64,000 nt of DNA from a virus. Each line of letters starts with the position of its first letter. Positions within the stretch are counted from its first letter, which is position 1. Made by a program: the position numbers and the translations under genes. Under the pieces are notes generated by a model, which did no database searches, had not been told where the DNA came from, and saw nothing but the letters and a program-made list of their open reading frames with translations. Below are positions 10,599-47,050 of the stretch, in pieces. The stretch is taken from IMG/VR virus record IMGVR_UViG_3300022916_000005; one strand, 5' to 3'.

Positions 10599-10823
10599 AT
10601 GGACAAAGAAACGATCAGAGAAGTTATTAAAGAAGAGTTTGATAGGCTAGATAGGAGTTTAAATCTCGATCCTCTTGAAGACCCAAAACAATCGTGGGAA
10701 GATTATAAAGGTCGTAGGAAGAATAAGGGTGGTGAGTTTTTCAAATTACTCACCCTTCTTGACAAACTTCAAAAAGAACAAGAGTCAGTCATTAAACAAC
10801 TTAAACTTATGAGAATGGAGTAA
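10599..10823 (+). CDS. Hypothetical protein, possible internal head protein
   Basis: N-terminal TIREVIKEE motif. Confidence 0.55.
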   Translation: MDKETIREVIKEEFDRLDRSLNLDPLEDPKQSWEDYKGRRKNKGGEFFKLLTLLDKLQKEQESVIKQLKLMRME

Positions 10824-12615: not shown

Positions 12616-14781
12616 ATGACAAAGAAGCTTCGAGTCATGGATTTTGATGACACTTTGGTTCGCACTGGAGCAATGGTAATTGTAAATCATGCCAACGGTG
12701 TAACAGAAGAAATGACACCAGGAGAGTATGCAATATATGATCCTCAACATGGGGATCAATTTAACTATTCTCAGTTTGATGGCCCTTTAATTAACCCAAG
12801 ACAAATTGGGCAAGTCTTTAATGCTTTTAAGAAGGACTTGTTAATTACTACCCATAATAAGATTGTATTGATCTTAACTGCAAGAGGGGCACAAAAACCT
12901 CTTCGTGATTATTTGACAAGTATCGGTATTGATCCAAAGAAGAATAGAAACCTTCGTATTGCAACTTTGGGTTCGGGAGATCCTCAACATAAAGCTGGCG
13001 TAATTGCTGCACTGATTGAAAAGAAGGGATTTGATGATGTTGAATTCTTTGACGATTCTGTCAAGAACAGAGATGCAGTAGCAGCGTTGGCAGATATTCC
13101 AAGATACTCTCATGCCAGAATTGAAGTAAAACCATATACTTGGGAGAATGAAGATCTTAACGAGAAAAAGAAAAAAGAATATAATGACTTAGCATTACTT
13201 CACGATTCAGATTATAACACAGATGACAACATGTCAGACACAATCGAAGAAGTTATTCAACTTCTAACAACCAATCTTGGTAACAAAATCAAACCATTTT
13301 CAAAAAAAAAATTAATTAACGAGATTACTCAAAGAGGGTTTGAGAGTCGTCTAAGGGATGGTCTTGAGGATTTTTCTAATATTGATATGCGTGGTCTTGA
13401 TTTGGGTGGTCGAGACTTGAGTGATCTTGATTTTTCTGGGGCAAACTTGAGAGGCGTTAATTTGTCTGGAGCCAACTTAATGGGGACTTCTTTTCGCAAT
13501 GCAAACCTAACTGACGCCGATTTAGAAGATTCAGAATTTGATGAAGATACGAACGTCGATGGGACGATAATGTCAAGAGAACAAAGATTATATATTACCG
13601 GAGATGATGTCGGTCCTTCTGCCGAACAAGATAACGAAAGAGATTACGATGGAAACGCTGTAGATCTCGAAACAATGTCAAAAGAAAGACTACTTGGACT
13701 TCTTTATAGCAGTGAATTAAACGAGCCTGAAGAGTTCTATGCAATTCTTCGAAATCCAAATACAGATGCAGATATTATTAACAGTTTGTGGGAAGAATCC
13801 CCAGATGACGAAGCAATTGATATTGCTATCGCAATGCATCCTTCGGCAGATGAGAATATTTTATCTAGTATTCAAAACTATCACAATACCACTACGGTAA
13901 ATGATATAGTTAGACGATTACGTAGCGGAGAAATCTCAAGAAGTATTCCGCCAAGAGAATCCCAACAAGAAGAACCCGAATACATGCAAGGATTTCAAAT
14001 AGGAGATAGTGTACAATTTTACAATGAGTTTAATAGATTTATAAGAGGACGAATTACTGGTTTCGAAGATAACCTATTTATAGTATCGGATGGTCGAGAT
14101 ACACACTTTGCGGCACCCGACGAACTATCAAGAAGTCAAACATCATCCAGTGACGATCAAGAAATTCAAATTGGAGACGAAGTAGAATATCACCCAGAGA
14201 GTGATGAACAAACTCGTCGTGGACAAGTTACAGAAATAGAAGACAATTATGATGGGTCAATGGCCTACAGAATCAAAGGTTTGAACGATAATTCGGAAGG
14301 GTTTTGGTATAATGATGACATCGATATAAGAAAAGTATCATCCAATATTAACGATCAACCTACCCCAAAATATCAACGAGGAGATGTCATTTCTGCCTAC
14401 GCCTCTCAGGGCGGGATCAAACAAATAGTACAAGGTGAAATTCAAAACATCGATAATGACAGGATTGTTCTATTGCTGCCAAGTGGTAATCGTGTCAACA
14501 TTAAGGCGAGTGATGTACGAGATGTCTTAAAGAAGAAAAAAAAGAAATCAACAAAACAATCAAAACATCCAATCCAAACAAGATTTGACATGTTAGATAT
14601 GGACGATGATAAACTAACTACATCAAAACCAAAGGAATCAAGTAGGTTTGACATGTTGGACATGGAACCAACAGATGAAGACGAGAAGAGAAGACAACAA
14701 CTAAAGGCAATGGGTCTTGATGAACAAAGAATGAAAAGGTTGATCAAAGAGGAACTACTTAACATCAAAGGAAATAAATGA
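12616..14781 (+). CDS. Multidomain protein: HAD-like phosphatase, pentapeptide repeats, helical repeats, three SH3/KOW-like domains, twin RFDMLD motifs
   Basis: DFDDTL, ILTAR, FFDDS; ANLRGVNLSGANL; NPNT/HPSA repeats; QIGDxV repeats. Confidence 0.7.
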   Translation: MTKKLRVMDFDDTLVRTGAMVIVNHANGVTEEMTPGEYAIYDPQHGDQFNYSQFDGPLINPRQIGQVFNAFKKDLLITTHNKIVLILTARGAQKPLRDYLTSIGIDPKKNRNLRIATLGSGDPQHKAGVIAALIEKKGFDDVEFFDDSVKNRDAVAALADIPRYSHARIEVKPYTWENEDLNEKKKKEYNDLALLHDSDYNTDDNMSDTIEEVIQLLTTNLGNKIKPFSKKKLINEITQRGFESRLRDGLEDFSNIDMRGLDLGGRDLSDLDFSGANLRGVNLSGANLMGTSFRNANLTDADLEDSEFDEDTNVDGTIMSREQRLYITGDDVGPSAEQDNERDYDGNAVDLETMSKERLLGLLYSSELNEPEEFYAILRNPNTDADIINSLWEESPDDEAIDIAIAMHPSADENILSSIQNYHNTTTVNDIVRRLRSGEISRSIPPRESQQEEPEYMQGFQIGDSVQFYNEFNRFIRGRITGFEDNLFIVSDGRDTHFAAPDELSRSQTSSSDDQEIQIGDEVEYHPESDEQTRRGQVTEIEDNYDGSMAYRIKGLNDNSEGFWYNDDIDIRKVSSNINDQPTPKYQRGDVISAYASQGGIKQIVQGEIQNIDNDRIVLLLPSGNRVNIKASDVRDVLKKKKKKSTKQSKHPIQTRFDMLDMDDDKLTTSKPKESSRFDMLDMEPTDEDEKRRQQLKAMGLDEQRMKRLIKEELLNIKGNK

Positions 14782-25634: not shown

Positions 25635-26375
25635 ATGAAAACAATTAATAAAGAAACATTAAGAAAAGTTGTCAAGAAGATCTTGGAAGAAGGTCGATGG
25701 CAAGATTTAGCAAGAGAACAAGGGGTATTGAAAGATCCTCAACCAGAATCTGATACAGGAACTATTGAAGTTGGAGATCTTGTAGAGTATCTCAAAACAA
25801 TTACTGTATATTTAAAAACACTTAAACAAGATACTCAAAAGAGAAGAGCCAGACCATCAGTTAAAAAAGATATCCATCCAAGAGGAGATGTCGAAAAGAT
25901 ATTTACATCAAGCACGACAGGAAAAGAGATGGCAATTGTAATATGGCATAATGCCGGAAAGTATTGGCAGAATGCAATTCGATACGTCCCACTATCAGAT
26001 TTAAAATTAATCAGAAAAAGCGAACCAGAAAAGGAAAAGCAAGAGTCTCCATATGAACGAGTATCAAGTTTTAATGTTGGAGACCTTGTCGCAAGAGATT
26101 CTTATGGTGATACGATTGGTCTAAATTCAAAAATCTACACTGGAAGAGTCACGTCTCTCGATGCGGGACATCCAGAAGTTGATTGGACAAATTGGTATTC
26201 TGGGAACATGAGAGGGTATACTTCCTATAAAGTAGGCCAATTATACAAAATCAAAGAAGGAACGGAAGAATATAATTATACTTTAAAAAGAGCAAAAGAA
26301 GATGAAGAGAAAGGAGGCCCTGATTGGTGGATGCAAAAATCCTCGCTTTCAAAAATCCCACTTTCAACTAATTAA
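25635..26375 (+). CDS. Protein with two SH3/KOW-like domains, possible internal head protein
   Basis: KETLRKVVKKILEE; IEVGDLVEY; FNVGDLVAR. Confidence 0.55.
   Translation: MKTINKETLRKVVKKILEEGRWQDLAREQGVLKDPQPESDTGTIEVGDLVEYLKTITVYLKTLKQDTQKRRARPSVKKDIHPRGDVEKIFTSSTTGKEMAIVIWHNAGKYWQNAIRYVPLSDLKLIRKSEPEKEKQESPYERVSSFNVGDLVARDSYGDTIGLNSKIYTGRVTSLDAGHPEVDWTNWYSGNMRGYTSYKVGQLYKIKEGTEEYNYTLKRAKEDEEKGGPDWWMQKSSLSKIPLSTN
26367..26374 (+). promoter_or_regulatory. Putative late promoter ACTAATTA
   Basis: Upstream of the prohead protease. Confidence 0.55.
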
Positions 26376-26389
26376 GGATAATAGCCAAG

Positions 26390-27031
26390 ATGATAATTAA
26401 AGAAAACAAACAATATCTATTAAGAGAATTTTACGAAATGTGCCCAGATGGCAGATGCGGTATTGGGCTCCTGAATGAGAGTGAACAGAGCTATAAAAAC
26501 GAAGGGTTCACTTTATTGACAGGGAAGATGCAGACTGCCAACAAGAAAAATGCTAATGGCAGAATTTATAAGAAACCTTTACTTGAAAGAGAAATGCAAG
26601 TATATCAAAAGCTTGTAAGTGAGAACAGAGCTTATGGAGAACTTGATCATCCATCAGAAGCTATCGTAGAGGCAAAGAATGCATCTCATAGAGTGTTGAG
26701 GACTTGGTGGGATGGTGACGATGTAATGGGTGTTGTTCTTTTAATGAACACAAGAATGGGCAAAGATGCCCAAGCCATTGTTGAGTCTGGCGGAATGTTG
26801 GGGATCTCTTCGAGAGCACTAGGATCTTTAAGGAAAGAAAGCGATGCATTGATTGTAGAAGATGATCTTCAACTGATCTGTTTTGATTTAGTAACAGACC
26901 CAAGTACTGACGGGGCATTTATGATGCAAGACGTTTCGGTCAAACAAATTCAAGAGATCAGAGAAGGTAGATATCTGAGAGCGAATAGTAATAATAGACT
27001 TGAAGATTTGTATAACCAAATCTTAAATTAA
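26390..27031 (+). CDS. Prohead core protease (T4 gp21-like)
   Basis: NANGRIY, GELDHP, ASH, GISSRALGS, FDLVTDPS. Confidence 0.95.
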   Translation: MIIKENKQYLLREFYEMCPDGRCGIGLLNESEQSYKNEGFTLLTGKMQTANKKNANGRIYKKPLLEREMQVYQKLVSENRAYGELDHPSEAIVEAKNASHRVLRTWWDGDDVMGVVLLMNTRMGKDAQAIVESGGMLGISSRALGSLRKESDALIVEDDLQLICFDLVTDPSTDGAFMMQDVSVKQIQEIREGRYLRANSNNRLEDLYNQILN

Positions 27032-30128: not shown

Positions 30129-30353
30129 ATGAGAAGGATCGAGAACAAGAAGAGAAATGTGAATGTAGAGATTGTCAAGAAGTGGCGAGACGAACCGATT
30201 GAAAGAATGCTCAAACGCTTTTCAAAGAAAGTAAAAAGAGAAGGTATCTTAGAAGATTATAAAGAGAGGATGCAATACAAAAAGCCATCAGTTGCAAGAC
30301 ACGCAAAGAAGAGACGTTGTAAGCATCTTCAAGATATTGGGGCTTGGAATTAA
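30129..30353 (+). CDS. rpsU: 30S ribosomal protein bS21
   Basis: EPIERMLKRFSKKVKREGILEDYKERMQYKKPS. Confidence 0.9.
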   Translation: MRRIENKKRNVNVEIVKKWRDEPIERMLKRFSKKVKREGILEDYKERMQYKKPSVARHAKKRRCKHLQDIGAWN

Positions 30354-31847: not shown

Positions 31848-33584
31848 ATGGGTACTATTATGGACAGTTTAGCTCAAGGCGTTGTACAACGTAACCTAGA
31901 GCAGGAAGGGCAAGCCCTTTTGGACAAGTGGGAAAAGACAGGTCTTCTAGAGGGAATCGGTGATGATCATTCTCGTAAGGGTATGGCATTGCTTCTAGAG
32001 AACCAAACAAAGGAACTTCTTCGAGAAGCTTCAACGATGGCTGCTGGTGACGTAGAAGGTTTTGCTTCCGTAGCATTCCCTATTGTACGTCGAGTGTTTG
32101 GTGGACTTATTGCAAATGAACTAGTATCAGTTCAGCCAATGAGCCTTCCATCAGGACTGATCTTCTTCCTAGACTTCACCTTTACAGATACTAAGCTTAT
32201 GGCTGGTGCTCTTGCTGGTGAATCAATCTATGGTCAGGATCGAGTAGGTGCAGGTATCATCGACGGTGTCAATATTGAAGGTGGTGTTGGTGGATATGGT
32301 GATGAGTTGTGGAACCTTGAAAAGGGATTCTATTCACTTAACAACGCATATTCTGCCGCAACCGGTACGGTAGCATTATCAACGACTACAGTTCTTAGTG
32401 GCGCAATTGGTGATGGTGATGCAACTAGCTTGAACACTACACCAAAATTCGAAACTCTTGATGCTATGGTAGGTTATGACCCAGATATGATCGGTCTTAA
32501 CGTTGCATTTGGTATCTTCCCAACCAGTTCTATTGAAACTGGTACTGGAAAGATGAACTTCAAGAACCTTGTGGCATTCCATGCTCCTTATGGTTCTGGT
32601 AGTATGGTAAGACGACATACCAATTACTTCATCGACCACGATCAGGCTGACGGACATTACATTGCTGTCGCACTTGTGGCAACTGGTAGTGAATCAACAA
32701 ATGAGCTTTCTGGCGCATTGACTGGTTCTGTTACATTCAGTTACGCATACGCTGACAACTTTGAGGAAGGAACTGGTCTTGGAGCAATCAAGGGTACTAC
32801 ACTATGGCCTTTGGAAAACGAGACAGAGATTCCTGAAATTGACATCAAGATTGATAGCACTGCAATTACTGCAATGACTAAGAAGTTGAAGGCAAAGTGG
32901 ACCCCAGAATTGGGACAGGATCTAAACGCCTATCACAACCTTGATGCTGAAGTAGAGTTGACAAGTATTCTGTCTGAACAGATTGCTCTTGAAATCGATC
33001 AGGAAATCTTGAACGATCTAGTCAAGGGTGCAACTGCCGGTACTTATTACTGGTCACGCCGACCTGGACGCTTTGTTGACCGTTTGACTGGTGAGCTTAT
33101 CAATGTTCTCGAACAGGGTGACTTCACTGGTACTGTTTCTCAATGGTACGAGACCATGCTTGAGACAGTGAACGACATTAGCGCACAGATTCAACGCAAG
33201 GTGCTTCGTGGTGGTGCAAACTTCCTAGTTTGCGGCCCAGAGCTTGCCAATGTGTTGGAGATGACTTCTGGTTTCCGTGCAACCGTTACTGGTGACGAGG
33301 CCAAGGGTACCGCTGGTGTATTCAAGAGTGGAGCAATTAACAAGAAGTGGGATATCTACGTTGATCCTTACTTCCCACGTAATGTTGTTCTAGTCGGTCG
33401 TAAGGGTGGATCATTCCTTGAGAGTGGTTATGTATACTCACCTTATGTTCCACTACAGGTTACTCCTACTATCTTTGGTATCGAAGACTTCGTGCCTCGT
33501 AAGGGTGTCATGACTCGATATGCCAAGAAGATGGTTAGACCAGACATGTATGGCATTCTCATCGTGAGGGATTTGATGGGATAA
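31848..33584 (+). CDS. Major capsid protein (T4 gp23-like)
   Basis: AGGAGG RBS; KWEKTGLLEG, VSVQPMSLPSGLIFF, LKAKWTPELGQDL, YSPYVPL, GVMTRY. Confidence 0.97.
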   Translation: MGTIMDSLAQGVVQRNLEQEGQALLDKWEKTGLLEGIGDDHSRKGMALLLENQTKELLREASTMAAGDVEGFASVAFPIVRRVFGGLIANELVSVQPMSLPSGLIFFLDFTFTDTKLMAGALAGESIYGQDRVGAGIIDGVNIEGGVGGYGDELWNLEKGFYSLNNAYSAATGTVALSTTTVLSGAIGDGDATSLNTTPKFETLDAMVGYDPDMIGLNVAFGIFPTSSIETGTGKMNFKNLVAFHAPYGSGSMVRRHTNYFIDHDQADGHYIAVALVATGSESTNELSGALTGSVTFSYAYADNFEEGTGLGAIKGTTLWPLENETEIPEIDIKIDSTAITAMTKKLKAKWTPELGQDLNAYHNLDAEVELTSILSEQIALEIDQEILNDLVKGATAGTYYWSRRPGRFVDRLTGELINVLEQGDFTGTVSQWYETMLETVNDISAQIQRKVLRGGANFLVCGPELANVLEMTSGFRATVTGDEAKGTAGVFKSGAINKKWDIYVDPYFPRNVVLVGRKGGSFLESGYVYSPYVPLQVTPTIFGIEDFVPRKGVMTRYAKKMVRPDMYGILIVRDLMG

Positions 33585-33713: not shown

Positions 33714-35243
33714 ATGGAGACATGTTTAATTTGTGGAAAGGAAAAGAAAAGTAAAAGAGCATTGGCAACTCATCTTCAAATGGTTCACCACTTGAAATCA
33801 AAGGATTATACAATTCAATATATCTTAAAGGGAGAGCAACCAAAATGTTTGCTATGTAACAATGAGCCTCGTTATGTATCTTTTGAATTTAAACAATATT
33901 GCAAAGAACACAAGAACATTGCAGAAACAAAAGGAGGAAAGAGGGGAGGAAGAGGAGCGAAACTTTCTCTTGACGTTTTCGAAGAAAGATTAAAGGAATA
34001 TTGTTCTTTAAGAAATGTAGAAGATTTGAACAATAGGTATGAGGATTATATTAGCCAGAACGAAAAGAACATTAAAGTAAAATGTAACAAGTGCGAAGAG
34101 GAATTGACGACATCTTTAAATTATCTAAGAGATCATAGTTCAATATGCGGGAATTGTAGAGATCGTTCTACGTCTGAAGAGACAAAAGGCAAAATTTCAA
34201 ACACCTTAACGATGAAGAAGGAAGTATTTGAAAAAAGAGTACTGAATAAGTGCGACACGTTTAAAGTTTTAACAAAATATGAAGAATATGGCTCAAGAAA
34301 ATTACAAAAGAAACTGAAAGTAGAATGTGCAAAGTGTGGAGATATTACTAAAAGAACGCTACAACAACTTGACGAAGGGACTTTATGTTGGAAGTGTAAT
34401 CCGTCTTCAAAGCCGGAGAACGAAGTTGCCGAATGGGTAGAATCTCTTGGACTCGATGTTGTAAGAAACAGCAGAAAGATCATTGCTCCAAAAGAGATTG
34501 ATATTTACATTCCATCAAAAAAGGTTGCCATCGAATATAACGGATTGTATTGGCATAGTGAATTAAATAAAGAGAAATCATACCATTCAGATAAATCAAA
34601 GGCTTGCAAGGATAAGGGCATCTTTCTATTCCACGTGTTTTCAGATGATTGGGAACAGAAGCAAGATGTTGTTAAATCAATGATCAAAAACAAGTTAGGA
34701 CTTAACAAGACAAAGGTTGCAGCAAGAAAGTGCAAGATCATCGAGCAAGAGAAAAACAAACTAATGGATAAGTTTTTTAATGATAATCATTTATTAGGGC
34801 ATGTTCAAGCAACTAAAGGATTTTTCTTGGAATATAACGATCAGGTTGTTGCAGGAATTACGCTAAGAAAGCCTGCACACAGAAAATATAAAGGATCAGT
34901 TGAGGTTGCAAGGTTCACAACAAAGATCGATACAACAGTCCAAGGTGGATTTTCAAAACTTCTCAAGGCAGCAATCAAATGGGCAAAGGACAATGGTTAT
35001 GAAAAAGTTATTACATATGCAGACTTGTCTCACGGCAATGGCAATGTATATGAGAAGAACGGATTTACATTCCTAAACGAAACAAAGTTAAGTTATTGGT
35101 ATACCGATGGCATCTCACGCTACAATAGATTCAAATTCAGAGCACAAGATGGCAAAACAGAGAAACAAGTTGCAGAAGATAATGGTGTATTCAAGATCTT
35201 TGGTTGTGGGAATAATTTGTATGAACTGCCACTTTCTCCTTGA
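33714..35243 (+). CDS. Hef-like homing endonuclease (Zn fingers, Vsr-like nuclease, GNAT/Mom-like C-terminal domain)
   Basis: EIDIYIPSKKVAIEYNGLYWHS; EVARF..GGFSKLL..TYADLSHGNGNVYEKNGF. Confidence 0.8.
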   Translation: METCLICGKEKKSKRALATHLQMVHHLKSKDYTIQYILKGEQPKCLLCNNEPRYVSFEFKQYCKEHKNIAETKGGKRGGRGAKLSLDVFEERLKEYCSLRNVEDLNNRYEDYISQNEKNIKVKCNKCEEELTTSLNYLRDHSSICGNCRDRSTSEETKGKISNTLTMKKEVFEKRVLNKCDTFKVLTKYEEYGSRKLQKKLKVECAKCGDITKRTLQQLDEGTLCWKCNPSSKPENEVAEWVESLGLDVVRNSRKIIAPKEIDIYIPSKKVAIEYNGLYWHSELNKEKSYHSDKSKACKDKGIFLFHVFSDDWEQKQDVVKSMIKNKLGLNKTKVAARKCKIIEQEKNKLMDKFFNDNHLLGHVQATKGFFLEYNDQVVAGITLRKPAHRKYKGSVEVARFTTKIDTTVQGGFSKLLKAAIKWAKDNGYEKVITYADLSHGNGNVYEKNGFTFLNETKLSYWYTDGISRYNRFKFRAQDGKTEKQVAEDNGVFKIFGCGNNLYELPLSP

Positions 35244-35260
35244 TTTTCGAACGATTCTCC

Positions 35261-35289
35261 TTGACAAGTATCTTATATCATACTATAAT
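35261..35289 (+). promoter_or_regulatory. Sigma70-type promoter
   Basis: TTGACA-17 nt-TATAAT upstream of ligase. Confidence 0.85.
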
Positions 35290-35314
35290 ATAAACAACAT
35301 GAGAGGAGAGGTAA

Positions 35315-36778
35315 ATGACAAAGGTATACGACATTCTAAAAGAGATCAAGGCGACATCAAAGAAGAACGAAAAACTTGCAATTCTTAAAAAGAATAAAGA
35401 TAACGAATTGTTAAAGCAAGTTATCTATCATGCCCTAAACCCGCATTATCGGTATTACATGACAGAGAAGACGATCCCAGAAGATTATAGTATGATTAAT
35501 CCTCAAATTACGCTTGGAGAAGCTATCGAAGATTTGTACAAACTTCATGAACGAAAGATCACAGGACATGCTGCAATTGAATATGTACATGGTCAGATGC
35601 TTGGGTTAACCCGAGAAGATGCAAATGTATACTATGACGTAATTCTCAAAGATCTTAAATCTGGATTCTCTGCCAAGACTGCAAATAAAGTGTTTGGCAA
35701 GAATTTCATTCCAACAATCCCATATATGAGATGTTCTAGTGATGATAAGCACCTTGCCAAAATCAAATATCCCGCCATTTGTCAAGAGAAAATGGATGGA
35801 GCATTCTGTAATATTGTTGTTCACGACAAGGAAGTTGATTTTATAACAAGGAATGGCACAGTATTCGCGGTAAACAATATTGTAAATTCTGTTCTAGGAA
35901 TGACCGAAGAACAGGTTCTTATTGGGGAGATGTTGTACTTGGTTGATGGGAAGATTGCCGAGAGAAAGGTAGGAAACGGCAAGATCAATAAATTAATCAA
36001 GTCAGAACAGACAAGAGAATCAATTGCAAAGAAATACCAAGAAGCCACAACAATCAGACAAAGAGAAAAGTTGGATGAAAAGATTGCAGCTTTAAATCTT
36101 GATTTGTATCATATTGATACGAACATCGTTATGAAGGTGTGGGATATGATTCCATATGAAGATTGGATTAATGGCGAATACAATATGGCATACGAGGATA
36201 GGTTTGAAAAGGTAAAGGAATTGTGCAAGCACTGGATGAATAATGGATCAATTCTCCCTGTTGAATCGCAAGATGTCCAAGACGAAGAAGAATTCAGAAA
36301 GACAACAAGAGCATACATTAAAGAAGGAAAGGAAGGATCGGTTCTAAAGAACAAGACATCATTTTTCAAAGATGGAACATGTCGAGAACAAATCAAAGGT
36401 AAGGCCAAGAGAGATACAGATTTAAGATGTATTGGATGGGAGAAGGGAAAGAGTGGATCAACATTTGAAAATGGTATTGGTAGTCTAATCCTCGAATCAT
36501 CAGACAAAAAGTTGAAGGTCAATGTAGGAACAGGATTTGCAAGATCTCAAAGAGGGCTTGAACCAATTGATACAAATAATATTGCAAAAGGATTGCAAGC
36601 CATTGAAGACTTTGACTTCGATCAGTATACAGGTAAGATTATCGAAGTTGAATATAACGAACTTATTGAAACAAAGTCCAACAGAGAGACGTACAGTCTA
36701 TTCCTTCCAGTATTTGTTGAAGTTCGAAACGACAAGGATGAAGCAGATGGATTAACAAAGATTCAGGAGGATAATTAA
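35315..36778 (+). CDS. ATP-dependent DNA ligase (T4 gp30-like)
   Basis: EKMDG adenylation motif; EGSVLK; VNVGTGF; LFLPVFVEVRNDK. Confidence 0.93.
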   Translation: MTKVYDILKEIKATSKKNEKLAILKKNKDNELLKQVIYHALNPHYRYYMTEKTIPEDYSMINPQITLGEAIEDLYKLHERKITGHAAIEYVHGQMLGLTREDANVYYDVILKDLKSGFSAKTANKVFGKNFIPTIPYMRCSSDDKHLAKIKYPAICQEKMDGAFCNIVVHDKEVDFITRNGTVFAVNNIVNSVLGMTEEQVLIGEMLYLVDGKIAERKVGNGKINKLIKSEQTRESIAKKYQEATTIRQREKLDEKIAALNLDLYHIDTNIVMKVWDMIPYEDWINGEYNMAYEDRFEKVKELCKHWMNNGSILPVESQDVQDEEEFRKTTRAYIKEGKEGSVLKNKTSFFKDGTCREQIKGKAKRDTDLRCIGWEKGKSGSTFENGIGSLILESSDKKLKVNVGTGFARSQRGLEPIDTNNIAKGLQAIEDFDFDQYTGKIIEVEYNELIETKSNRETYSLFLPVFVEVRNDKDEADGLTKIQEDN

Positions 36779-36893: not shown

Positions 36894-38126
36894 ATGTCAT
36901 ATCCTGAATTTTCTCCTGCTTCTCAAATAAGCAGCACAGTACTACCAGAGACAGGAAGCGAAGGAAGTGTCCTTGCAGCCTTGCCATTTGGTATCTATCA
37001 ATCAACTGCATTCCTTTCTGGAGCAGCAGATCAAGTAACATATGTGTATCGAAGATTAGGAGGAGACGTTCTTGATCTTGAGATTACAGAAGATAATGTG
37101 TATTCAGCATATGAAGAAGCTTGTCTTGAATATTCATATCTAATCAACATCCATCAAGCCAAAAACGTATTAGGTGATGTATTAGGTTCGACAACGGGTT
37201 CTTTCGATCAGGATGGGAACATTATCGATGGAGCACAGAATGTTGAATCAATGTACCCTAAATTTGGATATGCCTATTCAAGAAAGGTATCTGATGCTGT
37301 AGGATCTGCAATGGCTATTGGAGGCTCAGAACCCGTCTATTCTGCATCTTTCGTGATCAAAGAACACCAGCAAGATTATGACCTACAAGAGATCATTAGT
37401 ACATCAGTTGAACACTCTGGAGCAGTAGGAAACAATAGGGTTCTCATTAAAAGAGTGTTTTACAAGACTCCCCATAGTATGTGGAGATTCTATGGTTATT
37501 ATGGTGGACTCAATGTCGTAGGTAACTTGCAGAACTATGGGCAGTGGGCAGATGATAGCTCATTCCAGGTTATCCCAGCTTGGCAGAACAAGATGCAGGC
37601 AGGAGCATTTGAAGATCACCTATATACAAGAACATCTCACTACTCATTTCAGGTAAGAAATAACAAGTTGAGAATTTTCCCTGCTCCTACATTTGCAGAT
37701 CCTCACAACTTCTGGGTCGAATTCATGGTTGATGGAGATGCTTGGGATGAAGACCCAAACAATCCAACTGGGGTTACTGGGGTAAACAACATGAACACCA
37801 TTCCTTTTGAAAATGTACCTTACGAAAGTATTAACTCTATTGGTAAACAGTGGATCAGAAGGTTTGGGTTGGCCTTGATTAAGGAAACGTTAGGACAAGT
37901 TAGAGGAAAGTTCACATCTGGTATCCCATTCCCTAATGGTAACGTAACATTGAATGCGTCAGAACTATTGACACAAGCCAAAGATGAACAAGAGAAGTTA
38001 CGAGAAGAACTAAAAACAATCCTTGATGAATTGACGTATGCCAAATTGGCAGAGCGTGATGCCACAATTATGGATAACACATTAAAGGTAAATGAAAAGA
38101 TCCCTCTCTTCATCTTCCGAGGATAA
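36894..38126 (+). CDS. Neck protein (gp13-like)
   Basis: RRLGGDVLDLEIT; QWIRRFGLALIKETLGQVRGKF..IP..VTLN. Confidence 0.8.
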   Translation: MSYPEFSPASQISSTVLPETGSEGSVLAALPFGIYQSTAFLSGAADQVTYVYRRLGGDVLDLEITEDNVYSAYEEACLEYSYLINIHQAKNVLGDVLGSTTGSFDQDGNIIDGAQNVESMYPKFGYAYSRKVSDAVGSAMAIGGSEPVYSASFVIKEHQQDYDLQEIISTSVEHSGAVGNNRVLIKRVFYKTPHSMWRFYGYYGGLNVVGNLQNYGQWADDSSFQVIPAWQNKMQAGAFEDHLYTRTSHYSFQVRNNKLRIFPAPTFADPHNFWVEFMVDGDAWDEDPNNPTGVTGVNNMNTIPFENVPYESINSIGKQWIRRFGLALIKETLGQVRGKFTSGIPFPNGNVTLNASELLTQAKDEQEKLREELKTILDELTYAKLAERDATIMDNTLKVNEKIPLFIFRG

Positions 38127-38132
38127 AAAAAT

Positions 38133-40745
38133 ATGAATAAAGAAACAATCAAAAATCTAATTTTAAATGAACATCAAAAGTTTCTTAGAGAGGCAACCAC
38201 TGGGAAAGGTCGTTATGGAGAAGATATCACCATTTCAGACATGTATTCTGATGAATTGATGCGCTTTTTGGATGATGAATATGATGAAGAAGAAATGACA
38301 GATTGGATGATTTTGAATAATCGAGCTACAGATATGAATTTGCTGTGGAATTTGGCAATGAAGACTCCAAACGTTGATACTTTAGTTTCTATTATCCGAA
38401 GCAACAAGATGTCAGACGATATGTTGGAAGAGTTGAGAGTAGAGCTTTCGAAAGAAGATTACACAACACAAGATGCCCAAAGATTAAGTGAAGAATTCAC
38501 AGAACGTTTGGGAGAAGAATTCCAAGTAGGGGATGCAGTATCTTATTATGATCACAGAAGACAAAGAACAATAAGAGGAACAATTGACGATATTCGAGGA
38601 GATAGGGCATTTATTCAAGAGCCAAATAGAGAAATGTTAAGTAACAGACCTTTTAGCGACTTGAGAAAGGTAAGGGAAATTTCTGCATCCGGCAGGATAG
38701 AAAGAGAAGATCTCGAAAGACTGCCAACAGAAGAATTCCAAGTAGGGGATGAAGTGGAATACACTACACAAGTTGGAACGAGACAAGAGAAAGAACGAGG
38801 CGTGATTAGTGATACCTACAATACTTACAATGATAACGCTATTTATACTATATCTCTTTCTAGAGGAAGAAGTGCAGAGGTAAGAAGAAATGAAATTACA
38901 TTAGTAAATAAAAAACCACCAATCCCAACCCAAGTCCTACAAACCGGAGATCGTGTATCTGTCAAATCAATGATGGGAGACAAAGAAGGACACATTATTG
39001 CAAAGCATGGCGACAAGTACAGCATTCAAATAGGACCAGACCATATCCTAAAAGGTGTGACATTGGATAGAATCAAAGTATTGCAAGCAAAGGCGAATAT
39101 GCCAAAATCTGCCAAGTCAGATGAAGAAGTCCGAATGTCAATGATGGATTTTGATGATGAACCCGAGACAGAAAAAAATAAAGATGATGATGGAACAAGA
39201 TTTGGTAGACTTGAACTTGATGAGGGCATTATTAAAAATTGGAAAGAAAATTTAAGAAAGGCCAAAGATCCAAACACATCACCTGACGAGTTGATAGAGC
39301 TGTCAAAAAACATTAGACCTGCAGTGAAAATGGCAGTTGCCGCAAATTCAAATACTCCAAGTTCTACACTGAAAGATTTGGCAAAAAGTAAACTAGGCAA
39401 AGTACAAGCTTTGGCGATCTTAAATCCAAATATCGAGGTTAGAGATATTCATATAGTTTTGGAGGAACTTGGAGTCAGTACTTCAACAAGATTAATTAGA
39501 TTACTTCGCAGAAAGTATGGTCGTCGTTGGGAGACCATAGAACGAATTGGAAAGTTTGAAGTAGGAGATAATGTATCATTCTTGTGGACAGGTAGAGTTG
39601 ATCCTCGGATATACGGAGTAATTGGAAGAGTTGAAGGAGAACGGGGTTATGGTACTGACAGTTATTGGATTGGTATTCCAAGAAGCCAACAAGAAAGGGA
39701 TACAACTCCAACGGGGACGTGGGTTGACGGCTCAGAACTTCGTCTTGAAACGGGGACATCTTCAGAAATGGCCCAAGGAAGGGTTCGTCAAGGAAGTATA
39801 ATTGAATTTGATGTATCTGGAGATACCTATATTGGGAGAGTTATTGGAATAGGCAGTGATGGGATGATTGTGGTTGATGTCGCAAATCATGAAGAAAATA
39901 TGCGTATATCAAGAGAAAGTGTTGTAAGCATATCTAATCCTTCTTCGACAACTCTTCGGCCAGGAATAGAAGATGATTTTGAAAGAGAATTGGAAAATGT
40001 TGTAGATAGATACAGAGCTTCTCTTGCAAGTAAAGAGCTAGCCCCTAAACAAGGTGATCGCGTTGAATTCAAGGACTCCTTTGGTATTGCAACTATTGGC
40101 AAGATCCAGACAATTCATGACAATGATACCTACACCGTTGGAGTGAAAGGTGGAACGAAGCAAGTTGCCAAATCAAAGATTACAAAGATCCTCGACAAGA
40201 AGAAAGAGAAAACAGATCAAAGAGATGACACCCAATCAAGATTTGATATGTTAGATTTTGATGGTGGCAATACAACAAGTACCCGAGACAAAGAAACAAA
40301 AGAAAGGAGATTCAATATGTTAGATTTAGATGAAGCTCGAAAATTTATTAACGATCTTGTAAAAGAAGAATTGGAGAATGTTCAATCAACTACTCCAAAA
40401 GTAGGAGATGAAGTAACCGTTTCTTTCCAAAGAAGGGAAGATGAGCATGGCATCATTATTGCACAAAACCGAGAGCAAACCAGATTCAATGTCAAGATTG
40501 GTAAGGCACAAGTCATTAAAGGACTACCAGCAGAAAGATTAATTATTACAAAGGTTGGACCATCCCCAGAAGATAAGGATGGTAAACGAAGATTCAACAT
40601 GATGGACCTTGACGATAAGGGTGTTGAAGTTGTTAACAATAGAGGCAGAGATGACGATCATTCAAGATTCAATCGACTTGAACTTGACGAGGCAAAAGAA
40701 ATGATCAAGAAGTTAGTTATTCGAGAAGGGAAAGAGAGAAAGTAA
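38133..40745 (+). CDS. Modular repeat protein (helical repeats, multiple SH3/KOW-like domains, RFxxLxxD motifs), candidate internal head polyprotein
   Basis: Repeated (F/P)xVGDxV barrels; DPNT/NSNT repeats; three pairs of RFxxLxxD-type motifs. Confidence 0.65.
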   Translation: MNKETIKNLILNEHQKFLREATTGKGRYGEDITISDMYSDELMRFLDDEYDEEEMTDWMILNNRATDMNLLWNLAMKTPNVDTLVSIIRSNKMSDDMLEELRVELSKEDYTTQDAQRLSEEFTERLGEEFQVGDAVSYYDHRRQRTIRGTIDDIRGDRAFIQEPNREMLSNRPFSDLRKVREISASGRIEREDLERLPTEEFQVGDEVEYTTQVGTRQEKERGVISDTYNTYNDNAIYTISLSRGRSAEVRRNEITLVNKKPPIPTQVLQTGDRVSVKSMMGDKEGHIIAKHGDKYSIQIGPDHILKGVTLDRIKVLQAKANMPKSAKSDEEVRMSMMDFDDEPETEKNKDDDGTRFGRLELDEGIIKNWKENLRKAKDPNTSPDELIELSKNIRPAVKMAVAANSNTPSSTLKDLAKSKLGKVQALAILNPNIEVRDIHIVLEELGVSTSTRLIRLLRRKYGRRWETIERIGKFEVGDNVSFLWTGRVDPRIYGVIGRVEGERGYGTDSYWIGIPRSQQERDTTPTGTWVDGSELRLETGTSSEMAQGRVRQGSIIEFDVSGDTYIGRVIGIGSDGMIVVDVANHEENMRISRESVVSISNPSSTTLRPGIEDDFERELENVVDRYRASLASKELAPKQGDRVEFKDSFGIATIGKIQTIHDNDTYTVGVKGGTKQVAKSKITKILDKKKEKTDQRDDTQSRFDMLDFDGGNTTSTRDKETKERRFNMLDLDEARKFINDLVKEELENVQSTTPKVGDEVTVSFQRREDEHGIIIAQNREQTRFNVKIGKAQVIKGLPAERLIITKVGPSPEDKDGKRRFNMMDLDDKGVEVVNNRGRDDDHSRFNRLELDEAKEMIKKLVIREGKERK

Positions 40746-42139: not shown

Positions 42140-44962
42140 ATGTCAGTAAAGCAATTTAAATTTGTATCACCAGGAGTTTTCCTAAACGAAATTGATAATT
42201 CACAACTTCCAAATGTAGGGGATGAAATTGGGCCACTAGTAATTGGTCGATTTAAGAAAGGCCCTTCAATGCAGCCAGTTCTTATTGAAGATACTGACAA
42301 GCTTGAGCAGACATTTGGATTGCCAGATCCTGGATTATCATCTGGGGATGCTTGGCGAGATGGTACCTATACTAGTCCAACATATGGCGGATATGCTGCA
42401 TATTCATGGTTAAAAAATTCAAATGTGCCTATCACTGTTGTTCGTTTGTTGGGTGAGCAGAATGATGATGCAACAAGCGACATTGGAGAGGCTGGCTGGA
42501 ATGCTGGGCAGATTACAGAAGAGAACTATGGTGGAGCATATGGTCTCTTTGTTTTCCCATCTTCAAGTTCTGCAACAAATATTACTGGAGCTTTGGCTGC
42601 AACTTGGTACTTCCCAAACGAAATGAGTGGTGGAATCATGTTGTCTGGGACAATCGCTGGGGCAATTACCGAAACGACTGCGAGTAATGCACTACTTTTC
42701 GAGTCGGCAAATCAAGCACTTACTGTAGTAATGTCATCTGGGTCTACATTGCTAGATGCAAAGAAGATTACTTTTGATATGGATACTGTCCGTGACAAGT
42801 TTAACATGGATCCAACATTGACAAATACTTCTGTCACGCTGGCGGCAGATCAAAAAACCTACTGGTTAGGCGAAACTTACGAAAGAGCTGCAAAAGAAAT
42901 TATTGGTACTGGTGAATATTGGGGAATGATTGTAGGATTAGAAGATTCGGCAGGAACTGTAGAGAAGTCAAATTACAATATGTCTCGTCAAGTTGCGAAG
43001 ACTGGTTGGTTCTTCTCCCAGGATGTTGGAACAGCTACATCATTCGTTCCTTCCGCGATGCAAAAGTTGTTTAGATTGCACACTCTAGATTCTGGAGAGC
43101 ACGATCAGAGAAATTATAAAGTTACAATTCAAGACATTAAAGCAGCAAAGGTAACTGGTGATTATGGTACTTTTACCATTCAAATCAGAGACATTAGGGA
43201 CTTGGACAGTAAAAAGAACATCGTTGAGCGTTATTCAAACTGTAGTCTTAACCCTGCTGCAGATAACTATATTGCAAAGAAGATTGGAGATCAATATTAC
43301 GAATGGGATTCAACACGAAATGTTCTGTTAGAGAAGGGAACTTTTGAAAATAAATCAAGGTTGGTAAGGGTTGAAGTAGATACGGTTGTTGCATCTGGTC
43401 GTGCCAATAAGGTATTTTTACCATTCGGTGTGTACGGCCCAGAAAAGATTAAAGATACAGTCATTACAGAAGCTGTTGTGACCCCAGATACGTTGGTTGT
43501 TGGTAGTGGTTCGATTTATAAAGATTTGGTAAACTGGGAAGAGGGAACAAACGAATTCTCAAGTTCTTTTGCAACAGATTTTACATCAAGCTTGCAGTTC
43601 CCTTCAATTCCGCTTGTTGAGTCAAACCACCCTTATGGTGGCACCTTGAAGGAAGATATGCACTTTGGAGTCGATCTTCTTAAGAGCGGAAGCTTGACAG
43701 CATTTGAAGGAAGTGTTGTTGATCTTGTAAGATCACTTCCCGCAGACGGGGCAAATCCAGGAAGTCCAATTGATTCTACCTTTACAGAGCAGTCTTGGTA
43801 CTTCACTCTTGACGATATTGCGTCAGGGTCTGTATCTGCAAATTATGATTATACTTCTGGTAGCCGAGCAGCAGAAAGATCAGTAACAGCCATTAGTGGA
43901 TGGTCAAACTTCTTGAACAACACCACAGGATTGAATAGATTTACTACAGTTCTCTATGGTGGGTTTGACGGTCTTGACATCACAGAGCGAGAGCCATTGG
44001 TGAACAACACACTATTGTCAGGGAAGACCGAACTAACAAGTTATTCTTTTAACACAATCAAGAGAGCGATTAGAATTGTTGAAGATGCCGAGGTTGTTGA
44101 ATACAATGTATTGACCGTTCCTGGCTTAACAAACGCATCATTGACCGATCAAGTCTTGGATACTTGTGAGACAAGGGCGGACGCTTTGGCAATTGTTGAC
44201 CTGCCATACGAATATACTCCAGAAACAGAAACTACAGATAACGAAGATACTCGTATCGGTAGTGTTAAAGATACTGTTGACGATGTGAAAGATAGAAACA
44301 TCAATACAAGTTATGGAAGTTCTTACTACCCTTGGGTAATGATTTCTGACCATCTTAATGGGAATGTCAATCTTTGGGTACCACCTTCAATTGTTGCACT
44401 TGGAACATTTGCATCAAGTGACACAGAGAAGGATGGAGCAGTTTGGTTTGCCCCTGCAGGATTTAACAGAGGTGGATTGGATGACGGTTCATCTGGCTTT
44501 AAGGTACTGCAAGTTCGAGATCGAGTATATGTTGCAGATAGAGATAATCTATATGAAAACAACATTAACCCTATTGCCAAGTTCGCAGGAGAAGGAATTG
44601 TAATCATGGGTCAAAAGACCTTGCAAAGAACACCTTCAGCACTTGACAGAATTAATGTTCGAAGAATGCTTCTATACGTTAAGAAGGAAGTATCTCGTAT
44701 TGCAACAAGTGTTCTGTTCGAGCCAAACTTGGAGAAGACTTGGGCACGATTCCGAGGACCAGTTGAGGCAATGTTGAGCGGTGTAAAGGCAGACTTCGGT
44801 TTGGCAGATTACAAAGTAATCCTTGACAAGTCAACAACTACCGAAGACCTTGTTGATAGAAACATCATGTATGCAAAGGTATTGTTGAAACCTGCCTATG
44901 CAGTAGAGTTCATTGCAGTTGATTTTGTTGTAACAAACTCTGGAGCATCATTCGCAGACTAA
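42140..44962 (+). CDS. Tail sheath protein (gp18-like)
   Basis: VSPGVFLNEID; WFAPAGFNRG; INPI..GQKTLQ...DRINVRR. Confidence 0.97.
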   Translation: MSVKQFKFVSPGVFLNEIDNSQLPNVGDEIGPLVIGRFKKGPSMQPVLIEDTDKLEQTFGLPDPGLSSGDAWRDGTYTSPTYGGYAAYSWLKNSNVPITVVRLLGEQNDDATSDIGEAGWNAGQITEENYGGAYGLFVFPSSSSATNITGALAATWYFPNEMSGGIMLSGTIAGAITETTASNALLFESANQALTVVMSSGSTLLDAKKITFDMDTVRDKFNMDPTLTNTSVTLAADQKTYWLGETYERAAKEIIGTGEYWGMIVGLEDSAGTVEKSNYNMSRQVAKTGWFFSQDVGTATSFVPSAMQKLFRLHTLDSGEHDQRNYKVTIQDIKAAKVTGDYGTFTIQIRDIRDLDSKKNIVERYSNCSLNPAADNYIAKKIGDQYYEWDSTRNVLLEKGTFENKSRLVRVEVDTVVASGRANKVFLPFGVYGPEKIKDTVITEAVVTPDTLVVGSGSIYKDLVNWEEGTNEFSSSFATDFTSSLQFPSIPLVESNHPYGGTLKEDMHFGVDLLKSGSLTAFEGSVVDLVRSLPADGANPGSPIDSTFTEQSWYFTLDDIASGSVSANYDYTSGSRAAERSVTAISGWSNFLNNTTGLNRFTTVLYGGFDGLDITEREPLVNNTLLSGKTELTSYSFNTIKRAIRIVEDAEVVEYNVLTVPGLTNASLTDQVLDTCETRADALAIVDLPYEYTPETETTDNEDTRIGSVKDTVDDVKDRNINTSYGSSYYPWVMISDHLNGNVNLWVPPSIVALGTFASSDTEKDGAVWFAPAGFNRGGLDDGSSGFKVLQVRDRVYVADRDNLYENNINPIAKFAGEGIVIMGQKTLQRTPSALDRINVRRMLLYVKKEVSRIATSVLFEPNLEKTWARFRGPVEAMLSGVKADFGLADYKVILDKSTTTEDLVDRNIMYAKVLLKPAYAVEFIAVDFVVTNSGASFAD

Positions 44963-46711: not shown

Positions 46712-47050
46712 ATGAACAAGAAGAACCCTCCAATCATCGATCTCGGAATGGCAAAAAGAAACACAACAGATGATAAGCAATTGTTAAATGAGTGGCTTGA
46801 TGTTTTGGGAGCTTGGATAGAACATATCCTTGGAGGAATGTTTGGTAAATCTTCCTTATCAGGAACAGTCAAAGGAACGCAATCAGAAATTCAAGCTTTT
46901 TCTAATGCTCTGGCAGGGGAAAAGAGATATATGGAAGCATACAAAAGGTATGGCCTTGACAATCAGGCGACTTTGAATAACAAATATAAGCTTGAAGATG
47001 CAGTACGCAAATTTGAGCAAGAAACAAAATTAAAGTGGCCCTTTAAATAA
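46712..47050 (+). CDS. Hypothetical tail-module protein
   Basis: ORF between chaperone and tape measure. Confidence 0.6.
   Translation: MNKKNPPIIDLGMAKRNTTDDKQLLNEWLDVLGAWIEHILGGMFGKSSLSGTVKGTQSEIQAFSNALAGEKRYMEAYKRYGLDNQATLNNKYKLEDAVRKFEQETKLKWPFK

Follow-up and report, generated by a model that had tools for sequence, protein, structure and literature searches.

The first 64 kb (the window) of the 122,708-bp IMG/VR contig IMGVR_UViG_3300022916_000005 (G000, about 59% complete), from an uncultured and distant T4-like myophage, encodes an orphan modular protein of 870 amino acids, p870. Each of its three modules ends in two copies of a short acidic peptide of the form RFxxLDLD, hereafter the RF peptide. 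The new observation is that this peptide also stands at the ends of seven unrelated open reading frames (ORFs) of a second phage contig, G001, and of two other metagenomic proteins. Judged by sequence it looks like an undescribed docking handle, and our literature search found no paper describing the motif. For p870 itself we tentatively favor a packaged, protease-processed internal head polyprotein whose fragments would carry RF docking tails.

Twin RF peptides in p870

A strict pattern, R[FM]xx[LM][DE][LMFI][DE], was run against the six-frame translation of the entire contig. It occurs eight times, compared with a mean of 0.14 (maximum 2) in 200 residue shuffles. All eight copies lie on the plus strand in only two ORFs, six in p870 and two in ORF 12616 (p721), and they are invariably paired, 21–25 residues apart (22–25 within p870). 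An initial annotation of the window, made from sequence, had described three motif pairs in p870, and all six copies were recovered, at residues 334, 356, 703, 726, 820, and 845 (nucleotides 39132, 39198, 40239, 40308, 40590, and 40665). As it had also noted, the second motif of every pair closes with L-D-E (E364, E734, and E853), and two of these sites, 734 and 853, are followed by a helix that fits the pattern of the N-terminal tag; AlphaFold places a helix at residues 732–749.

When four units consisting of the last barrel plus linker were aligned, the only invariant linker columns were motif residues. The DNA of the motif copies is 64–88% identical and differs at synonymous positions; the RF peptide has therefore been kept by selection and not by recent copying. 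The repeat at 38513/38729, read earlier as a sign of barrel duplication, is present as 27 nt, 26 of them identical, with an exact 23 nt inside. The p870 protein is identical to the last letter on 23 near-clonal metagenomic contigs, and strain variants therefore carry no selection signal.

No motif-bearing homologue of p870 was found in four very large sequence collections. Searches by tblastn against 50,697 phage records, by word index against 5.8 billion proteins, and by pattern-plus-tblastn scans of IMG/VR returned p870 itself or p721 only, and a profile of the unit against 5.8 billion clusters retrieved these two proteins only. In the related phages LR756508, Mel-JY01, and immuto, the single motif occurs at background level only. 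The earlier suggestion that the peptide mimics a motif of a host factor found no footing, as a twin-motif scan of 185,579 GTDB species genomes gave noise only and no credible host protein. The sole 'RFxxL' motif that we found in the literature, a eukaryotic MIT-domain ligand (PMC12057046), was judged a coincidence.

The RF peptide at the ends of other proteins

A DNA pattern for the twin motif, applied to metagenomes, recovered an orphan 210-residue protein on two contigs, 76% identical, that ends in RFRMLELD, 17 further residues, and a second RFRMLELD directly before the stop codon. The same pattern found nothing related in IMG/VR. A phage protein of the 'tryptophan-repeat' family (phrog_3532) has three terminal copies, the last being RFELMDIE followed by the stop; the tryptophan-repeat paralogues of Listeria phage LPJP1 have no RF tail. 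G001 (IMGVR_UViG_3300033388_007730), a 219-kb huge-phage contig of 31.6% G+C and 44% completeness, entered the analysis via a single IMG/VR copy of the peptide at a stop codon. Scanning it gave 10 motif matches and 0 for the reversed pattern. Seven of its ORFs end exactly in RFx[LIM][LMI][DE][LFMI][DE] (for example ...DRFDILDFD and ...NRFNIMEMDE), compared with 0.055 expected, and another copy lies 28 residues short of a C-terminus. The seven are mutually unrelated and, apart from one tryptophan-repeat protein, have no family assignment.

Because the RF peptide ends seven G001 ORFs and differs from the p870 copies by as little as one residue, it is a portable tail used by different phages, and within G001 it looks like a shared C-terminal address tag. 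IMG/VR scans for a C-terminal RF tail returned essentially G001 alone. The extreme C-terminus that the peptide occupies there is the position that cleavage after LDE would create in p870. The exposed C-terminal motif proposed in the initial annotation thus has independent support from the seven G001 ORFs and the two other metagenomic proteins. G001 has a bacterial-type replisome, including DnaB, a clamp loader, and a weak DnaN-like ORF. It has only six proteins in common with G000 and therefore offers no shared phage-encoded receptor candidate.

Module architecture and the paralogue p721

The modular plan of helical repeat, barrels, and twin motif with LDE junctions, as first proposed, is borne out by the motif map, AlphaFold, and alignments. 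Each of the three modules of p870 runs from a CTS-like helix (CTS, the capsid targeting sequence of T4) through LRV-type repeats and/or Tudor/SH3-like barrels to a disordered acidic linker holding the motif pair. There are seven barrels, three in unit 1, three in unit 2, and one in unit 3. They are real small beta-barrels by both AlphaFold and Foldseek. A unit model, built with AlphaFold on a 10-row alignment of paralogous units, has a five-stranded barrel with a predicted local distance difference test (pLDDT) score of about 90, a disordered linker, and a helix starting at the LDE site. Full-length p870 modeled without an alignment reached a pLDDT of 36 and was unusable. Against solved structures, Foldseek ranked the Tudor domains of PHF1, PHF19, and PHF20 at the top (template-modeling score 0.75–0.80, root-mean-square deviation 1.1–1.6 Å, E about 1e-2), with KOW, Hfq, and a designed SH3-like barrel below them. 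In a viral structure library, the fold matches many phage orphan proteins of 50–75 residues. Pfam and PDB sequence searches with the barrel gave nothing significant.

The LRV region is the sole segment of p870 with outside sequence relatives. Pfam LRV_2 scores 18.1 bits on unit 2, under its cut-off of 27, and phmmer against 1.84 billion representatives yielded 226 matches, all aligning to residues 365–450. None of the 149 examined has the motif, and five inspected sequences are LRV repeat proteins. Kinship of the barrel to tiny 'KVGD' proteins of G000 was considered and set aside, the similarity being marginal (best E 0.015). Many ORFs of 70–100 residues at 68–109 kb of the contig start with xKVGD, and several of them top the barrel-profile ranking, at E of 0.015–0.1 only; their sequences would indicate no more than a remote kinship among small barrels.

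In p721, a HAD-type phosphatase domain (DFDDT motif) and pentapeptide repeats (PF00805, E 4e-11) precede a C-terminal part built like p870; its residues 375–599 are colinear with p870 residues 58–282 (BLASTP E 8e-07). That it ends in the same unit had been noted at the outset and holds, with RFDMLDMD at 14581 and RFDMLDME at 14644. It lacks an N-terminal tag and has the motif pair and helix at its C-terminus alone.

Tag helices and the prohead protease

Among the head and scaffold genes of G000 are those for a gp23-type capsid protein, a scaffold protein, and an S77 (gp21-type) prohead protease, ORF 26390 (PF03420 Peptidase_S77, E 2.6e-23; phrog_207, E 3.5e-42). In the capsid protein, L-L-E51 and L-R-E60/A (slash, candidate cut) lie on either side of the residue that aligns with the mature N-terminus of T4 gp23. 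These sites are at the T4-equivalent maturation position, which makes L-x-E specificity plausible. The sequence F-L-R-E20/A near the start of p870 resembles the capsid L-L-R-E/A site. Its N-terminal tag resembles the T4 CTS, MKTYQEFIAE, in form and not by homology. The T4 peptide, of roughly 10 amino acids, is N-terminal and is taken off by one cut (10.1101/2021.01.19.427310), and T4 Alt is trimmed at both ends, at ITE-6 and LTE-619 (PMC5694885).

The tag-helix pattern occurs four times in the genome, twice at N-termini and twice directly past LDE734 and LDE853, compared with 0.04 expected, an enrichment that is illustrative only because the pattern was defined after seeing the sequences. Of the 'tag plus barrels' that had been assigned to ORF 25635, just upstream of the protease gene, the tag stood; the barrels are weak, with a barrel-profile match at E about 0.06 only. 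In Mel-JY01, the ORFs adjoining the protease likewise begin with helices ending in I-R-E or I-A-E. Elsewhere in G000, a 198-residue ORF at 84953–85549, upstream of ClpP-like and chaperonin-like ORFs, starts MSKKLLLTE/ATT, like the FLRE/ATT of p870.

Position of the p870 gene

With a GAGGA Shine-Dalgarno-like site upstream of it, the gene starts 6 nt past the stop codon of gp13; the next gene starts 4 nt past the p870 stop. We counted this tight packing among neck genes in favor of a head polyprotein. The nearest cultured relative is Microcystis phage Mel-JY01 (36% identity in the capsid protein, 33% in gp13). In that phage nothing separates gp13 from the counterparts of window ORFs 40749 and 41240 (E 1.7e-12 and 5.6e-11 by phmmer). 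Relative to Mel-JY01, the p870 gene, which parts gp13 from the neck gene that follows, is therefore an insertion into the neck operon specific to this lineage. The T4 late-promoter box TATAAATA is uninformative in G000.

What p870 may do

In the explanation we favor, p870 and p721 would be late proteins of the virion module, probably brought into the prohead core by short amphipathic targeting helices, much as T4 proteins do with their CTS. The S77 protease would then probably cut after the Glu of L-x-E at module junctions, namely E13 or E20, E364, E734, E853, and E865. Such cuts would take out the 12-residue helices and yield three fragments of 'beads-on-a-string' type, about 351, 370, and 107–119 residues long. 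Each fragment would consist of LRV repeats and Tudor-like barrels followed by a disordered acidic tail with two RFxxLDLD peptides, the last of them at or near the new C-terminus. The RF peptide may act as a short linear docking motif for a single partner.

The gp21-type cleavage at LDE foreseen in the initial annotation fits in part: LDE sites lie at all three module ends of p870, and the S77 protease, the capsid L-x-E sites, and the CTS-like helices agree with it. Several observations weigh against cleavage and against the head polyprotein as a whole. The tripeptide [LI]xE is not enriched in p721 or in p870 (13 occurrences in the latter, 11.8 expected), and it is enriched in the tail sheath (42140–44962; 17 compared with 6.9 expected, z 4.4), a protein that the prohead protease does not process; by itself the tripeptide thus says little about cleavage. 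The second motif of p721 ends in D-M-E-P and not in LxE, with the nearest LDE 19 residues past the motif end, and cutting could be impeded by the helix predicted across the LDE site. Both proteins are large and acidic (isoelectric point 5.4 and net charge −20 for p870; 4.7 and −44 for p721), unlike the small basic internal proteins of T4. A 74-residue tagged ORF (10599) lies outside the head module, and in the unit model the motif is not docked on the barrel. Finally, p870 is without orthologues in the collections searched, so that the evidence for conservation consists of paralogous copies alone.

The lack of L-x-E enrichment would also suit a protein that is never packaged or cut. p870 could be an intracellular adaptor, a multivalent hub holding its RF peptides on one common partner such as the replisome or another hub protein, in which the helices would be ordinary amphipathic ones. 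Other phage proteins bind polymerases or clamps through acidic C-terminal tails, and the RF peptide is loosely like such acidic-hydrophobic clamp-binding tails. The small RF-tailed proteins of G001 have no structural signs, and that contig encodes the replisome genes named above. However, the clamp-binding motif (bacterial QL[SD]LF; T4 gp45-binding tails) was rejected as a match, as the RF peptide has neither its Gln nor its terminal aromatic residue. Neither the PolIII-alpha-like ORFs of the two phages nor any other of their replication proteins has the RF motif. A clamp family search found no match in the G000 contig, which covers about 59% of the genome, and only the weak DnaN match in G001. 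The p870 gene moreover lies within the neck operon, and its tag is common to the ORF adjoining the prohead protease. We regard the adaptor as somewhat unlikely.

Protease, scaffold, and tagged ORFs in one genome would equally suit an assembly-only core accessory, whose RF peptides bind the inner shell or scaffold, much like encapsulin cargo-loading peptides, and which is cut up and expelled before DNA packaging, with no injection. T4 degrades its core proteins gp22, gp67, and gp68, which exit the head (PMC5694885), and the motif-plus-helix module of p721 is C-terminal only, as expected of a loading signal. Yet only 2 of the 13 [LI]xE sites of p870 fall inside folded barrels, so domain-sized fragments would survive, and p870 has no excess comparable to that of the scaffold protein (17 compared with 9.3 expected). 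With its enzyme and pentapeptide domains, p721 looks like a protein that acts once delivered, and Mel-JY01 assembles without a p870 gene. On balance this fate for p870 seems unlikely.

An external neck or collar fiber, or a decoration, would be a string of small domains attached near gp13/gp14. T4 fibritin adjoins gene 13, and the p870 gene, with its tandem small-domain build, sits between gp13 and gp14/15-like genes. We consider such a fiber very improbable, given that p870 has no coiled-coil or trimerization features, that its N-terminal tag is common to the ORF beside the protease, that the paralogue p721 has an enzyme domain and lies elsewhere, and that Mel-JY01 has no p870 gene.

The packaged head polyprotein can be carried one step further. 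The RF peptide might be a portable address tag for one conserved receptor, borne by some huge phages as the free C-terminus of many unrelated proteins and masked in the p870 polyprotein until the prohead protease cuts. Maturation would then arm Tudor/LRV proteins (HAD/pentapeptide proteins in the case of p721), which would enter the new cell together with the DNA and dock on the receptor there. We rate this fuller scheme as distinctly improbable.

Relation to known systems

Internal proteins IPI–III and Alt of T4, with their CTS and gp21, are among the closest parallels to the proposed processing. Like p870, they begin with a short amphipathic peptide that closes with [LI]-x-E, and a gp21-family protease is encoded in the genome; cuts at two ends have a precedent in Alt, and the cargo bodies are diverse and fast-evolving, as here. 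Unlike them, p870 has three modules per chain, a helix repeated inside, and the extra conserved twin RF peptide. There is no sequence homology, and the packaging of p870 is predicted. In the giant phages phiKZ, 201phi2-1, and SPN3US, cleavage of numerous paralogous head proteins follows the Glu of a simple tripeptide, in some cases at more than one site, and propeptides are removed (PMC5694885). Those proteins differ in having S/A/G-x-E sites, an S80 protease, and no RF peptide, Tudor-like, or LRV modules. Mass spectrometry has proven their processing, whereas that of p870 is predicted.

The use of the RF peptide in G001 may be compared, by analogy, with encapsulin cargo-loading peptides and bacterial microcompartment encapsulation peptides. 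These are likewise short and portable, lie in disordered and often C-terminal tails, and bring unrelated proteins to one partner, but their sequences are unlike the RF peptide. With the Tudor/SH3-like families (PHF1, PHF19, and PHF20 Tudor; KOW; Hfq) the p870 barrel shares a five-stranded fold some 50 residues long; its sequence matches no Pfam or PDB family significantly.

If the polyprotein reading is true, a T4-like phage would package multi-module cargo as one chain with repeated targeting helices, and the internal-protein/CTS idea would extend past single small proteins. The RF peptide would connect two phenomena so far observed apart, protease-processed head proteins and the C-terminal tags shared by many huge-phage proteins. 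Because the peptide is short, has a sharp definition, and turns up in at least four sets of unrelated proteins, a direct search for its partner is feasible. The tag could also be put to use for loading proteins, and should the partner be a host hub, the motif would mark a new class of phage take-over or counter-defense effectors.

Annotated features and neighboring genes

Features are collected in Table 1.

Table 1. Coordinates of p870, its parts, and related features. Positions are those of G000 unless another contig is named.
Feature	Position	Strand	Remarks
p870, orphan modular protein, 870 aa	38133..40745	+	ORF list, motif mapping
N-terminal tag	38133..38192	+	MNKETIKNLILNE (L-N-E13), then F-L-R-E20/A
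Unit 1 helical region	38172..38492	+	Degenerate LRV-like; aligns with LRV-like part of ORF 12616
Barrels 1–3, Tudor/SH3-like	38514..39086	+	aa 128–181, 198–260, 265–318
Twin motif 1	39132..39224	+	RMSMMDFD ... RFGRLELD-E364
Unit 2 LRV helical repeat	39225..39542	+	aa 365–470
Barrels 4–6	39546..40193	+	aa 472–540, 548–602, 636–687
Twin motif 2	40239..40334	+	RFDMLDFD ... RFNMLDLD-E734
Internal tag-like helix	40335..40370	+	ARKFINDLVKEE, immediately past LDE734
Barrel 7	40386..40553	+	aa 752–807
Twin motif 3	40590..40691	+	RFNMMDLD ... RFNRLELD-E853
C-terminal tag-like helix	40692..40727	+	AKEMIKKLVIRE (I-R-E865), then GKERK and stop
74-aa ORF with same tag	10599..10823	+	MDKETIREVIKEE
p721 (ORF 12616)	12616..14781	+	HAD domain, pentapeptide repeats, LRV-like helices, 3 barrels, twin motif 14581–14667, GLDE, helix QRMKRLIKEE 14725–14754
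246-aa ORF just upstream of protease gene	25635..26375	+	Related tag MKTINKETLRKVVKKILEE
Prohead protease, family S77 (T4 gp21 type)	26390..27031	+	Candidate processing enzyme
gp23-type major capsid protein	31848..33584	+	
gp13-type neck protein	36894..38126	+	Upstream neighbor of p870
Orphan 210-aa protein ending in two RF peptides	L038:7115-7744; also L024	- (L038)	
Tryptophan-repeat-family protein with three RF peptides	L066:211-1149	-	
G001 RF-tailed ORF ends	63703, 64243, 91472, 175756, 193639, 195472	+	
G001 RF-tailed 53-aa ORF	172083-172244 (reverse-strand coordinates)	-	Motif match at + strand 46949-46971

G000 also has genes for a tail sheath and for ribosomal protein S21. The S21 gene (30129–30353) has head genes on one side and the scaffold gene on the other, as in Mel-JY01. 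Between the capsid gene and gp13, at 33714–36778, lie a DNA ligase gene and a 509-residue homing-endonuclease-like ORF with a GNAT/Mom-like C-terminal part; at the equivalent spot Mel-JY01 has PhoH and other genes.

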